Assembly (NCBI GenBank): GCA_020161265.1
Contig: JAIUOC010000003.1
Coordinates: 1 to 43,023 of the forward strand
Length of the DNA: 43,023 bases
Direction: 5' to 3'
Source: Chloroflexota bacterium
GTDB taxonomy: Bacteria; Chloroflexota; Chloroflexia; Chloroflexales; Herpetosiphonaceae
In this document: in pieces, positions 27,029 to 28,712 of the stretch
Layout: every line of letters begins with the position of its first letter
Numbering within the stretch: position 1 is the first letter of the stretch
Program-made: the position numbers and the translations under genes
Notes under the pieces: generated by a model
The model's input: the letters and a program-made list of their open reading frames with translations, nothing else
Told to the model about the DNA's origin: nothing
The model's database searches: none

Positions 27029-27160
27029 AATATAAAACCAGTTCTGGTTCACGAAGAGAGAATAGGCTATAGGCTATAGGCTATAGGCTATTGGTTTTCA
27101 ACAAATGTTCCGCCAGCCAATAGCCTTCAGCCTCAAGCCATAATACCTCTGCGCTTCTGG
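27014..27160. repeat. Composite repeat element: GAACATAGAGCATAG, CACGAAGAGAGAATA, (GGCTATAG)x4, CCAATAGCC, ATAATACCTCTGCGCTTCT
   Basis: ttcacgaagagagaataggctataggctataggctataggctattgg (27049-27097) is nearly identical to 28640-28678, which has one fewer GGCTATNG unit. The GH3 stop codon lies inside the GAACATAG module. Confidence 0.6.
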
Positions 27161-27260
27161 ATCAAAACTTGATGATTGTCTTTGTAAGCTTTCTGTAAGA
27201 TTTGATACAAATAAATCTATCTATACTAGATGGGCAAGAATCGATCTTTTGGAGGATAGT

Positions 27261-27944
27261 ATGCGCCATCTACGTTGGGTCACGCTCTGTATGCTTGGTA
27301 TGATTTTGCTGTCGGCCTGTGGGAGTGCAGCCAATCCTACTACCCCATCATCACCTGTGGTTGCGGCTACTGCTACCACCGCCGCAATTGCGGCCACCAG
27401 TGTCACCGATTCAGGCAATGGCAACCAGTCACCAACGGTAATTCCAGCAACAGTTAATGACCCTGAACCAACGGTTGTACCAACAGTCGCGAATCTTGCA
27501 GCTTGGCAAAGATTGCCATTAATTAATGCGCGAACTGGTGAATCGTTTACCCTCGCAGATTTTTATGGCAAGACCATCTACGTTGAGCCAATGGCAACGT
27601 GGTGCAGCAATTGTCGTAAACAACTTACGATTGTGGCTGAAACTCAGGCCCAACTGACTAATCCCGATGTTGTATTTATTGGGCTAAGTGTTGAAACCGA
27701 TCTTGCGGCAAATGATCTTGCAGCCTATGCTGATGAAGCTGGGTTTGATTGGCTTTTTGCCGTGAGCACTCCCGAGCTGTTGCGCGAATTAACCGCAGTC
27801 TTTGGTCGAACCATCACCAATCCTCCAGCAACGCCACATTTTATTATTCGCCCTGATGGAACGACGACTGAACTCAGCACTGGAATCGAACCAAGCGATG
27901 TGTTACTCAGTGCGCTTCAAGCAGCAGGAGCAACCGCACCATGA
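27261..27944 (+). CDS. Lipoprotein thiol:disulfide oxidoreductase, TlpA/ResA (redoxin) family
   Basis: Lipobox LLSAC; thioredoxin-like WCSNCRKQ active site. GGAGG lies 5 nt upstream of ATG 27261. Confidence 0.75.
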   Translation: MRHLRWVTLCMLGMILLSACGSAANPTTPSSPVVAATATTAAIAATSVTDSGNGNQSPTVIPATVNDPEPTVVPTVANLAAWQRLPLINARTGESFTLADFYGKTIYVEPMATWCSNCRKQLTIVAETQAQLTNPDVVFIGLSVETDLAANDLAAYADEAGFDWLFAVSTPELLRELTAVFGRTITNPPATPHFIIRPDGTTTELSTGIEPSDVLLSALQAAGATAP

Positions 27945-28606
27945 GCCAATATTTTGAGGCCTTTGTATTGGGCAATGGGGCGATTCTCGGCAATGTTTGT
28001 ATGTTACCGCTCTACCCTGGAATGTTGGCCTATTTGGCAGGAACGCAGAAACAGGCGCGACCTGCTTGGTTTATGGCAGGATTAGGAATCTTAGTGCTGA
28101 GTGGCATTTTAACCCTGATGTTGGTGGTTGGCTTGATCGCATTTTTATTACAGCAATCGCTCAGCACGTTCTTGCCTGTGCTCTTACCAATTCTCTATAC
28201 AATCGTGATTATCCTTGGTATCTTGATGCTGCTTGATCGCAACCCCTTTACCCGAATGAGCCAACTCCAAATGCCAATTATGCGCCATCCAGCGGCAGGT
28301 GCATTTATCTATGGGCTTGGCTTAGGCCCAATGACCTTGCCTTGTACTGGACCCTTAGTGATTAGTGCTTTTCTGTTGGGTGTTGGCGACCCAGTGGCAT
28401 TGGCTGACGGAATCCTCTACTTTTTATGGTTTGGTATGGGTTTTGGCTGGCCGCTGGTGGTGTTGCCACTTTTTGCCCAACCTATTCAACGGGCGTTTAC
28501 CAAGTGGACAACTCGTTCGCATAGTTGGCTCAATCGCTTCTCTGGAATCTTGCTACTAGCAATTGGGCTATTTGGGATTGTGGTAGAAGTGCTGCCAAAT
28601 CTGTAG
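27941..28606 (+). CDS. ccdA: Cytochrome c-type biogenesis / thiol-disulfide electron transporter CcdA (DsbD TM-domain family)
   Basis: Polytopic, with two conserved Cys in TM helices (GNVCMLPLYP and MTLPCTGPLV). ATGA overlap with the tlpA-like gene. Confidence 0.8.
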   Translation: MSQYFEAFVLGNGAILGNVCMLPLYPGMLAYLAGTQKQARPAWFMAGLGILVLSGILTLMLVVGLIAFLLQQSLSTFLPVLLPILYTIVIILGILMLLDRNPFTRMSQLQMPIMRHPAAGAFIYGLGLGPMTLPCTGPLVISAFLLGVGDPVALADGILYFLWFGMGFGWPLVVLPLFAQPIQRAFTKWTTRSHSWLNRFSGILLLAIGLFGIVVEVLPNL

Positions 28607-28614
28607 CCGCATCA

Positions 28615-28712
28615 GCATAGAACATAGAATCAGTTTCGATCCACGAAGAGAGAATAGGCTATCGGCTATCGGCTATTGGAAGATTTATTGAAAACCAATA
28701 GCTGATAGCCAG
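28615..28712. repeat. Composite repeat element: GAACATAGAA, CACGAAGAGAGAATA, (GGCTATCG)x2 GGCTATTGG, CCAATAGCTGATAGCC
   Basis: A direct repeat of the 27049-27097 core. ggctatcggctatcggctattgg pairs with ccaatagctgatagcc as an inverted repeat. Confidence 0.6.

Follow-up and report, generated by a model that had tools for sequence, protein, structure and literature searches.

A tlpA-ccdA-like gene pair lies between two partial copies of an intergenic composite repeat that is single at empty sites in related Herpetosiphon lineages

In a Herpetosiphon-like MAG of the Chloroflexota, a two-gene unit encoding a TlpA/ResA-like and a CcdA-like protein is flanked by two similar repeat elements, which are probably duplicates of the left half of a single composite repeat resident in the spacer, brought to either side of a 1.6-kb indel by recombination. 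To describe the site we used a 43,023-nt stretch of this genome (the window) together with loci of about 16 kb from relatives. The left half of this repeat stands on both sides of the insert, and the whole repeat is single at empty sites; the repeats therefore mark an insertion/deletion junction. An earlier reading of the window from its letters (the original prediction) had suggested either an insulator/terminator function or a mobilisable cassette; the repeats are no property of a cassette and belong to the resident spacer between a GH3 glycoside hydrolase gene and ykgJ, and their vocabulary is found in many Herpetosiphon spacers. Coordinates of all features are collected in Table 1.

The paired look-alike elements were recovered at the predicted positions, both in + orientation, and bracket both genes: element A sits in the GH3-tlpA spacer and element B in the ccdA-ykgJ spacer. 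The pattern CACGAAGAGAGAATAGGCTAT has exactly 2 matches in the window (starts 27050 and 28642, + strand), and none of 100 shuffles contained any match with 3 mismatches permitted. A repeat search returned a direct repeat pair of 66 nt (85% identical; spacing 1592) whose copies have an exact 21-mer in common, the only pair of its kind in the 43 kb; measured from the start of the left copy to the start of the right copy, the indel is 1592 bp. The number of core units differs between the elements as predicted, with a period of 7 rather than 8: TRF reported 4.3 copies of AGGCTAT at 27062-27091 and 2.9 copies of GGCTATC at 28657-28676 (period 7, 100% matches in each case), and the previously proposed unit GGCTATNG includes one overlapping G. 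An AGAACAT-type array (27008-27036 and 28614-28629) stands ahead of each core and an inverted partner behind it, as had been noted, with inverted arms at 27072-27094 / 27117-27139 in element A (23 nt, 83%) and at 28664-28679 / 28695-28710 in element B (16 nt, 94%). The description of the elements as direct copies applies only to the left flank and left arm; the loops are mutually reverse-complement (local score 11 in reverse complement versus 4 direct; whole hairpins 32 versus 21.5), and the right-hand tails are unrelated. In the Logan assembly L014, an independent assembly of the same strain, both elements are identical to the window, which argues against a MAG assembly artefact. In L015 the assembly stops where element B begins, probably because of the repeat. 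The identical 21-mer also raised the idea of gene conversion between A and B, which is unproven, since H. geysericola has a family-level counterpart of this junction.

Table 1. Features of the window (numbered by window position) and loci of relatives with an empty GH3-ykgJ site
Feature	Position or locus	Strand	Remark
GGCTAT-hairpin member with the same tail (GCGGCTATGGGC .. GCCCATAGCC ATTATTCCTCTGCGCTTCT)	7264..7365	+	
Composite spacer: GGGGTCA / AGAACAT / GGCTATG .. CTTCGTG / CCTGACC arrays	20380..20610	+	
GH3 glycoside hydrolase gene	24863..27028	+	conserved left neighbour; last codons extend into AGAACAT array
Element A, nested palindrome directly 3' of GH3	27008..27169	+	
A: AGAACAT-type array	27008-27036	+	overlaps GH3 stop 27026-27028
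Left copy of 66-nt direct repeat	27022..27087	+	orthologous to left arm of single-copy spacer element in empty-site genomes
A: linker ACCAGTTCTGGTT	27037-27049	+	
A: CACGAAG	27050-27056	+	
A: AGAGAAT	27057-27063	+	
A: AGGCTAT x4 + TGG	27064-27094	+	
A: loop	27095-27116	+	
A: right arm CCAATAGCC TTCAGCC TCAAGCC	27117-27139	+	
A: tail ATAATACCTCTGCGCTTCTGG	27140-27160	+	pairs back to CACGAAGAGAGAAT
Transferable unit: 5' region and two genes	27170..28623	+	BLAST homology limits against copies in other contexts
Unit 5' region TTTCTGTAAGATTTGATAC..CTATCTATACT	27170-27260	+	conserved; probable promoter/operator
TlpA/ResA-like thioredoxin-fold lipoprotein gene	27261-27944	+	Pfam/NCBIfam, translation
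CcdA/DsbD-like membrane protein gene	27941-28606	+	Pfam/NCBIfam, translation
Element B	28614..28779	+	
Right copy of 66-nt direct repeat	28614..28679	+	
B: AGCATAGAACATAGAA	28614-28629	+	
B: linker TCAGTTTCGATC	28630-28641	+	
B: CACGAAG	28642-28648	+	
B: AGAGAAT	28649-28655	+	
B: AGGCTAT C GGCTAT C GGCTAT TGG	28656-28679	+	
B: loop	28680-28694	+	reverse complement of A loop
B: right arm CCAATAGCTGATAGCC	28695-28710	+	
B: C-rich heptamer tail TCCCGAT CCCCAGT CCCCAAC AGCCGAT CCCCAAT	28720-28754	+	
B: TTGTTACAATACCCGTT GTCCAGTG	to 28779	+	conserved ykgJ leader
YkgJ-family CxxCxxCC protein gene	28808..29236	+	conserved right neighbour
Carboxyltransferase / RluA-like spacer: mosaic of CACGAAGNN, GCCACAGATT, ATAGCC and ATGTTCT arrays	30941..31300	+	
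Empty site	L019/L020/L021		carrying H. aurantiacus protein
Empty site	L022		H. geysericola
Empty site	L024 and L029		H. llansteffanensis and close relative
Empty site	L026		NSE202
Empty sites	L028, L034		

The inserted unit has a GC content of 0.47, against about 0.52-0.53 in its flanks, and its 3' end is GCATAGAAC. The predicted gene names tlpA and ccdA hold at family level only, and the curated cut-offs for TlpA and ResA are missed by far (NCBIfam TlpA 36 bits, cut-off 230; ResA 25, cut-off 170). The first product reaches 34.7 with Pfam Redoxin (cut-off 26.6) and carries a lipobox LLSAC and the motif WCSNC; the second scores 23.1 with DsbD_2, slightly under the cut-off of 24.9, and has Cys in VCMLP and LPCTGP. 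With scores below cut-off and these motifs present, the safe names are TlpA/ResA-like and CcdA-like. BLAST placed further copies of the unit at L016, a secondary copy in H. gulosus (85.8% over 27170-28623), and at L018 (80.9% over 27181-28606), each in a different context and without the repeats. Of the two observations that were to weaken the idea of a cassette or insulator, one has thus been made: the pair occurs without the repeats in two other contexts. Since the L016 copy moved without repeats, the unit must have been transferred by another route at least once.

At the GH3-ykgJ site itself, the promoter-tlpA-ccdA segment is present only in the window MAG and in syntenic H. gulosus (L017), where the orthologue of element A lies at 5086-5225 with different unit counts. 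In seven related lineages GH3 directly adjoins ykgJ with one composite hairpin between them. That tlpA-ccdA is a discrete unit is therefore supported: it is an indel between repeats, and all seven empty lineages have a single copy of the element. The ancestral composite comprises an AGAACAT array, a CAGTnTCGATC linker, three copies of CACGAAGNN, a loop and three copies of NNCTTCGTG; in the MAG and H. gulosus lineage a segment consisting of GGCTAT hairpin A, tail, promoter, tlpA and ccdA sits inside it, and its left half (AGAACAT array, CAGTnTCGATC, CACGAAG) stands on both sides of the insert. The left parts of A and B in the MAG, both H. gulosus flanks and the single copy of H. aurantiacus are homologous by alignment. 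Joining H. gulosus A-left to B-right in silico at CCACGAAGA recreates the H. aurantiacus spacer, with 89.6% identity over 211 nt and 40 identical nt spanning the junction.

Empty sites throughout clade II and in a third lineage (L034) make the insertion the derived state. The unit of the MAG is 89.5-91.1% identical to that of H. gulosus, close to the value for the flanking genes (91.6-95.3%), which fits one old event with shared junctions. Quartet-informative sites mostly group the MAG with H. aurantiacus (76, versus 40 and 31), and on that majority the empty site of H. aurantiacus would be a later deletion between the repeats; on these sequences such a later loss is possible. The phylogeny of clade I is near star-shaped with conflicting sites, and gain followed by loss, lateral exchange and two gains are for that reason not separable. 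On the right side of the insert the MAG has a GGCTAT hairpin and C-rich tail that resemble those of clade II loci L022 and L024, and H. gulosus has a CACGAAG hairpin; these differing right sides call for an additional event. The right junction of element B is near-identical to H. llansteffanensis L024 7929-7975, one example of spacer types that are incongruent with the flanking-gene tree, at most a hint of exchange by transformation and homologous recombination in the flanking genes. A locus with a 67% identical YkgJ (L030), tried as an outgroup for polarity, is not syntenic and was of no help.

Recombination at the repeat itself is the likely cause, judging from these end products. In a Campbell-type single crossover, a repeat copy on incoming or looped-out DNA would recombine with the chromosomal copy to give repeat-insert-repeat, and a crossover in the opposite sense, from one flanking direct copy to the other, would excise the insert with only one copy remaining, as in H. 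aurantiacus. Slippage would later have shifted unit numbers (CACGAAG from 3 to 1, GGCTAT from 1.5 to 4.3), the hairpin loop would have flipped, and in the MAG lineage the right-hand copy may have acquired or retained a GGCTAT hairpin of the same family. The original prediction of slippage agrees with the finding that, from one orthologous element to another, every array changes in its number of units; in the one other sample of the same strain (L014), no variation in unit number was seen. At the RNA level, the weakest step, the hairpins are probably 3'-end structures for GH3 and ccdA. No circular intermediate, repeat-flanked donor locus or recombinase was seen among these sequences.

Three other accounts of the origin were weighed against recombination at a resident repeat. 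If the unit were a dedicated mobile cassette, with the elements as attC-like or terminal-repeat sites through which a site-specific recombinase or transposase moves tlpA-ccdA, one would understand why repeats bound the indel and one copy is retained at empty sites, why the hairpins are imperfect palindromes of attC-like size, and why GGCTAT hairpins are gained and lost irregularly among orthologous spacers, even between L024 and L029 (3% diverged), in the manner of mobile DNA. This is nevertheless very unlikely, and the predicted mobilisable cassette with its repeats was not borne out: the unit lies in two other contexts without the elements, and Pfam scans found no integrase, recombinase, transposase or HUH gene among the 33 ORFs of the 43-kb window. 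Nor is the unit a promoterless ORF with attC, as in an integron, since the conserved promoter region is its own (the 90-nt 5' region is kept in 4 of 4 contexts) and L016 and L018 are without the hairpins. The bounding repeats are direct, 66 nt long and part of the resident spacer, unlike those of a MITE or composite transposon; no short target-site duplication or transposase was found at the insert. What is repeated is an arm of the resident spacer, the left one, which every empty genome has, and brackets of this kind also enclose a pectate-lyase gene and, elsewhere, a gene-free stretch. A pre-existing tandem duplication of the composite, between whose copies the unit landed by illegitimate recombination, possibly via AGCATAGAAC microhomology, has a precedent in H. 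llansteffanensis L024, with A-like and B-like GGCTAT hairpins in gene-free tandem, and another in the duplicated 30941/31119 composite inside one window spacer, and the unit's 3' end GCATAGAAC matches the array. We hold it to be unlikely, because L024 is without a second AGAACAT-CAGT-CACGAAG left arm ahead of its second hairpin, and because the right copy of H. gulosus runs directly into the ancestral loop and right arm, like a split single element. The copies could also have been assembled independently from the common vocabulary, for example by a mobile hairpin landing beside two CACGAAG sites, with coincidental bracketing. The CACGAAG / (A)GAGAAT / GGCTAT junction is seen again in H. geysericola (CACGAAGGAGAATTGGCTAT) and, in approximate form, in H. 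gulosus, the loops are oppositely oriented and the right tails differ; we give this account little chance, given that both copies have their four modules in one order across 66 nt (85% identical) and form a pair found once in the 43 kb, that H. gulosus has the left-arm duplication without the right-side GGCTAT hairpin, and that joining its flanks reproduces the H. aurantiacus spacer.

A further reading concerns function: the elements may act as 3'-end RNA hairpins that stabilise, terminate or insulate the upstream transcript (GH3, ccdA), the duplication being kept because it provides a 3' structure for the inserted operon. REP/BIME and Correia elements act as 3'-end RNA structures in other bacteria (PMC3733652, PMC2649163). 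Both elements begin at, or at most 13 nt from, a stop codon, and their predicted folds are more stable than those of all shuffles, with z-scores from -3.6 to -8.5 (element A, 27029-27165, -46.8 kcal/mol, z -5.05; element B, -34.6 kcal/mol, z -3.6, 16 contiguous pairs, + strand). The B stem has a G-U pair on the + strand, where the opposite strand would have mismatched C and A, and CTCTGCGCYTCTG, the tail motif, points the same way as the upstream gene at 4 of 4 independent spacer positions seen. We regard this role as possible but doubtful. The stems are followed by ATAATACC.. (A) and AGATTAAAATCC.. (B), neither with a T-tract, so a terminator role is unsupported; a scan of 26900-28900 returned no intrinsic (Rho-independent) terminator at A or B, although the organism uses textbook terminators elsewhere, for example at 24603-24634. 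The terminators predicted for both ends are accordingly not of the canonical kind. No canonical promoter was found at the elements. Arm unit numbers are unequal, for example about 1.5 versus 4 in L028, and pairing is thus not tightly maintained. A role in RNA 3' ends is compatible with an origin by recombination.

The two elements belong to a wider repeat vocabulary. In Herpetosiphon, spacers are patchworks of tandem arrays with units of 7 nt or 9 nt, accompanied by inverted partner arrays, and together these form long imperfect hairpins; the array words include AGAACAT, CACGAAGNN (9-nt) and GGCTATN. Intergenic DNA makes up 13.3% of the window and holds 11 of its 13 period-7 arrays (p 1.4e-8); period-9 arrays are intergenic in 7 of 9 cases (intergenic DNA about 13%), as are 10 of 11 occurrences of CACGAAG and 7 of 8 of AGAACAT. 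By inspection, such arrays are present in 9 of the 24 window spacers with a length of 30 nt or more. The hairpin at 7264..7365 lies in a spacer that separates convergent genes and begins 4 nt past the stop codon of an ORF on the + strand. In the carboxyltransferase / RluA-like spacer a 48-nt composite is directly repeated (30941-30988 versus 31119-31166, 94%) with no gene between the copies, and the outer modules of the composite spacer at 20380..20610 recur at 22048-22252, so that the pectate-lyase gene (20611-22047) is likewise bracketed. Across species, orthologous spacers are different mosaics built from the same words, and other Herpetosiphon genomes use these words again. The GGCTAT hairpin, whose tail CTCTCTGCGCCTCTGCGTTAA is conserved, is polymorphic for presence at orthologous spacers and nested inside another palindrome, and the same repeat-rich spacers are rearrangement breakpoints in L019 and L035.

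A scan of a genome collection with GAAGAGAGAATAGGCTAT gave 13 matches, all in unrelated taxa and about the number estimated from the size of the collection; as no Herpetosiphon match was among them, other species of that collection do not conserve the exact junction. A metagenome scan with CACGAAGN{0,1}GAGAATNGGCTAT gave 3 matches, all in unrelated coding or other sequence. Searching PLSDB plasmids with both elements by BLAST returned chance matches only (E values 2 to 5), and a tblastn search of plasmids with the carboxyltransferase gave nothing useful. Against Rfam nothing in the window reached the gathering threshold, and 26900-28900 gave one chance match (E 0.3). No description of intergenic repeats of Herpetosiphon was found in the searchable literature.

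Several known systems are similar in part. Cyanobacterial STRRs have the consensus units CCCCA(A/G)T, TT(G/T)GTCA and CAACAGT. Like them, the period-7 arrays here (13 in the window) are intergenic and occur at many loci; the host, however, is Herpetosiphon-like, the units are AGAACAT, GGCTATN and CACGAAGNN, CCCCAGT-like units appear only in the tail of element B (28720-28754), and the arrays, in another phylum and with other words, form nested palindromes with conserved linkers and tails. Intergenic heptamer repeats are described as STRRs in Calothrix/Nostoc, as GGGAATC in Xanthomonas and as TAACTGA in Beggiatoaceae (PMC4692102, PMC4679880). The likeness extends to tandem 7-nt units confined to spacers, mixed heptamers within one spacer, stem-loop-forming inverted arrays, and strong variation of length and sequence in the same spacer among close relatives; the Herpetosiphon composite in addition flanks a gene indel, which these papers do not report for those repeats (PMC4692102, PMC4679880). 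REP/BIME/REPIN elements of proteobacteria are extragenic imperfect palindromes just past stop codons, in composite mosaics, biased in orientation relative to genes and with proposed roles in mRNA stabilisation or termination (PMC3733652, PMC2817692, PMC3116915). The Herpetosiphon elements too are imperfect palindromes near stop codons in composite mosaics; they differ in that no GTAG/CGTC head stands at their ends, the stems begin with GGCTAT or CACGAAG and consist of tandem short units in variable number, and no RAYT gene was seen in the window. Elhai and co-workers are said to have described in 2008 MITEs and small dispersed repeats (SDRs) nested in the heptamer arrays of cyanobacteria. The GGCTAT hairpin resembles these in its polymorphic presence and its nesting in a palindrome, but no target-site duplication or defined termini were established for it, and its arms vary in unit number instead of forming fixed terminal inverted repeats.

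A parallel in behaviour is the minimal mobile element (MME), a small gene set that some strains have and others lack between one fixed pair of conserved genes; the neisserial intergenic mosaic elements (NIME) are mosaics of spacer repeats, variable in number among strains, proposed to promote recombination and exchange of adjacent genes (PMC1797815). The GH3-ykgJ site behaves similarly, with GH3-[tlpA-ccdA]-ykgJ in 2 lineages and GH3-ykgJ in 7. The Herpetosiphon repeats are without a dRS3-type 20-bp inverted repeat and have no sequence relationship to NIME, and classical exchange runs through homology of the flanking genes, whereas here the spacer repeat is duplicated at the junction.

The tlpA-ccdA case is one in which a small accessory operon enters, and probably leaves, the chromosome at a resident intergenic repeat, with occupied and empty alleles available for comparison. 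It is a tentative and, in our view, rather unlikely extension that Herpetosiphon spacers are recombination substrates genus-wide, their composite palindromes of short tandem units being acted on by a hairpin-specific enzyme or being unusually prone to RecA or template-switch events; if true, such a system would let promoter-bearing gene units come and go reversibly, would account for flipped loops, for nested insertions and for breaks in gene order at the same spacers, and would be a NIME/MME-like mechanism of plasticity undescribed in Chloroflexota. Repeat-rich spacers at gene-order breakpoints are relevant to genome plasticity and to breaks in MAG assemblies, and annotation is affected because ORF ends and starts extend into the arrays. 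The site flags Herpetosiphon, predatory filamentous Chloroflexota, for a rich and fast-evolving vocabulary of intergenic repeats.

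A 66-nt direct repeat (27022-27087 versus 28614-28679; 85% identity, spacing 1592 bp) was found on both sides of the tlpA-ccdA gene pair, as the original prediction had described, with one copy in the GH3-tlpA spacer (element A) and the other in the ccdA-ykgJ spacer (element B). Its core, CACGAAGAGAGAATAGGCTAT, occurred at 27050 and 28642 and at no other position in the window, even when up to 3 mismatches were allowed, and 0 of 100 shuffled sequences gave a match. The tandem units are AGGCTAT (4.3 copies, element A) and GGCTATC (2.9 copies, element B), giving a period of 7 nt instead of the predicted 8 nt. 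Each core has an AGAACAT-type array on its 5' side and an inverted partner on its 3' side, forming stems of 23 nt (83%) in element A and 16 nt (94%) in element B; direct repetition is limited to the left flank and left arm, and the tails of A and B differ. An independent Logan assembly (L014) matched the window base for base at both elements.

Positions of genes, a further hairpin and MITE-like elements
Feature	Sequence	Position
GH3	window	24863-27028
TlpA/ResA-like thioredoxin-fold lipoprotein, WCSNC	window	27261-27944
CcdA/DsbD-like membrane protein	window	27941-28606
YkgJ-family protein	window	28808-29236
Further GGCTAT hairpin, same tail (..CCTCTGCGCTTCT), after an ORF	window	7264-7365
MITE-like element	L017	6668-6861
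MITE-like element	L028	7618-7790
MITE-like element	L019	2543 onward; ~5170-5300
MITE-like element	L024	10130-10320
MITE-like element	L026	2697

The CcdA-like protein (MCA0351789.1), assigned to a 'Chloroflexi bacterium' MAG, has its closest named relative in Herpetosiphon gulosus (90% amino-acid identity). The end of the GH3 ORF overlaps the AGAACAT array (27008-27028), and repeat units code for its last residues (ESKEHRA). The GH3 protein has 721 aa in the window and in H. aurantiacus, 720 aa in L034 and 713-714 aa in most other genomes. GC content is 0.47 across the inserted region (27001-29000) versus ~0.52-0.53 in the adjoining kilobases, which is consistent with a different origin of the unit.

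Loci were gathered through YkgJ orthologues and grouped by distances over ykgJ and the carboxyltransferase gene: clade I (the MAG, H. gulosus, H. aurantiacus and L035; ~6.5% apart), clade II (five genomes) and a third lineage, L034. GH3 is followed directly by ykgJ in L019, L020 and L021 (H. aurantiacus protein), L022 (H. geysericola), L024 (H. llansteffanensis), L029 (GCA_003205875.1; 3% diverged from L024), L026 (NSE202), L028 and L034, and among the loci compared tlpA-ccdA lies between the two genes only in the window and at L017, the syntenic locus of H. gulosus. Because the site is empty throughout clade II and in L034, we take the insertion to be the derived state. The commonest empty spacer (L019, L026, L029, L034) holds a single composite, ordered as AGAACAT array, linker, CACGAAGNN x3, loop, inverted units x3 and ykgJ leader.

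When aligned, the left parts of MAG elements A and B proved homologous to each other, to the two flanks in H. gulosus and to the one copy in H. aurantiacus. The H. gulosus insert begins after ..CCACGAAGA and closes with a second AGAACAT-CCAGT-..CCACGAAGA, which is followed without a break by the loop and right arm of the ancestral element. Joining the H. gulosus flanks in silico at CCACGAAGA reproduced the H. aurantiacus spacer (identity 89.6% over 211 nt, the junction itself lying within 40 identical bases), so that the occupied site reads as repeat-insert-repeat and the empty site as a single repeat. Judged from these end states, a single crossover at the repeat or, equally, a deletion between direct repeats would interconvert the two. 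The repeats are the spacer's own resident element, present in duplicate where the insert joins it; the predicted mobilisable cassette is half right, in that the genes form an indel bounded by repeats, but the repeats are not a cassette-specific device.

The MAG and H. gulosus have a common left junction (hairpin A, tail, ..AAAAC(T/C)TGATGATTGT), and unit identity between them (89.5-91.1%) is close to that of the flanking genes (91.6-95.3%), which fits one old insertion event behind both occupied sites. Quartet-informative sites grouped the MAG with H. aurantiacus (76, versus 40 and 31); if this grouping is right, in a tree that is nearly a star, the empty H. aurantiacus site would be a later loss. 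At the right junction, the MAG (CCCCAACAGCCGATCCCCAATTTGTTACAATACC.GTTGTCCAGTG) and clade II L024 have near-identical sequences and the ancestral right arm is kept in H. gulosus, an incongruence possibly due to lateral exchange or recurrent site-specific insertion.

The unit also occurs in other contexts, namely a second H. gulosus copy (L016 1-10555, BAABRU010000030.1), among NACHT/FGE-sulfatase, CoiA-like and response-regulator genes with the repeat vocabulary absent from its flanks, and the Logan contig L018. Homology of these copies to the window is confined to 27170-28623, and the composites are therefore excluded. By three-point distances, L016 falls on the branch of the syntenic H. gulosus copy, and it carries the first bases of the MITE-like element adjoining the L017 copy; L016 is therefore a secondary copy, and the repeats did not move with it. 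It evolves faster than the syntenic copy. The original prediction had held that its cassette or insulator idea would weaken if the unit occurred elsewhere without the repeats and the repeats were not transcribed or processed; the first half is what was found. No integrase or transposase gene was found in the window.

Predicted folds are stable for element A (-46.8 kcal/mol, z -5.05), element B (-34.6 kcal/mol, z -3.6) and the ancestral hairpin (-50.2 kcal/mol, z -8.5), and the element A tail pairs back to CACGAAGAGAGAAT, giving a nested palindrome. The left arm of element B (28653-28679) can pair with 28695-28710 (94%) or with the C-rich heptamer tail at 28729-28755 (70-79% complementary), so two mutually exclusive hairpins are possible. 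No T-tract follows hairpin A or B, the terminator scan gave no match at either element and Rfam gave none; textbook terminators occur elsewhere in the window (e.g. 24603-24634). Elements A and B begin at stop codons. At four independent positions, the tail motif points the same way as the gene upstream of it. A role as 3'-end RNA structures, as described for REP/BIME and Correia elements (PMC3733652, PMC2649163), is plausible.

Arrays and hairpins differ between genomes. Element A has 3 CACGAAG units in H. gulosus versus 1 in the MAG, and ~1.5 GGCTAT units versus 4.3; AGAACAT counts also differ among orthologous elements. The GGCTAT hairpin with tail CTCTCTGCGCCTCTGCGTTAA is irregularly distributed: L022 has one nested copy, L024 two and L028 one, and it is missing in L029 despite the closeness of L029 to L024. 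The element B loop (28680-28694) is the reverse complement of the element A loop (27095-27116) between direct flanks, and the H. geysericola L022 loop (7760-7909) is inverted relative to L028 (7789-7850) and L024, which suggests inversion between arms or template switching. In H. aurantiacus-type contigs (L019 10091-16429), a block of Band7, PfkB, GGDEF and TPR genes is found downstream of the carboxyltransferase gene; in L035-L037 (L035 1-8000) only 12 nt separate it from ykgJ, upstream of which it lies. The repeat-rich spacers on either side of ykgJ and of the carboxyltransferase gene are therefore rearrangement breakpoints.

The same vocabulary extends across the window's spacers. Intergenic DNA makes up 13.3% of the window and holds 11 of 13 period-7 arrays (TRF; p 1.4e-8), 7 of 9 period-9 arrays (p 2e-5), 10 of 11 CACGAAG occurrences and 7 of 8 of AGAACAT. 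By inspection, 9 of 24 listed spacers have arrays in forward orientation close to the gene upstream and in inverted orientation close to the gene downstream. Orthologues of the carboxyltransferase/RluA-like spacer are differing mosaics of the same words across species. A 48-nt composite (CACGAAG arrays plus GTTGAAACCACGAAGA) is directly repeated within one spacer (30941-30988, 31119-31166; 94% identity) with no gene between, and H. aurantiacus has one copy only at the orthologous spacer. The mechanically called ORF start at 31301 falls within an ATGTTCT/ATGCTCT array (31286-31360); since RluA-methyltransferase orthologues (560 aa) begin after ..ACGGTACACTAAGCAGCAATTAACTGAAGGAA.., the true start is probably ~55-60 nt downstream. 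The pectate-lyase gene, like tlpA-ccdA, is bracketed by similar composites. The spacer preceding this gene (20380-20610) and the one preceding the rhamnogalacturonan-lyase gene (22040-22252) have their outer repeat modules in common, and the two genes themselves share a 300-nt CBM2-coding stretch (92%; 20693-20992 versus 22323-22622), which points to segmental duplication or conversion covering the spacer and the start of the gene. A GC-rich MITE-like element (ends TGTAATGGTTCAT..ATGAACCATTACA, core CCCTCACCCC..GGGGGTGAGGG), with none in the window, sits within short-repeat arrays at differing spacers in differing species.

On the defining features tested, the elements do not belong to the integron, MITE, REP or intrinsic-terminator families, and no description of the Herpetosiphon repeat vocabulary was found in the searchable literature. 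The closest known kinds are the heptameric repeats found between genes in cyanobacteria, Xanthomonas and Beggiatoaceae (PMC4692102, PMC4679880) and the neisserial intergenic mosaic and minimal mobile elements (PMC1797815). On the comparisons made here, the repeat pair is real, and tlpA-ccdA is an indel bounded by it.
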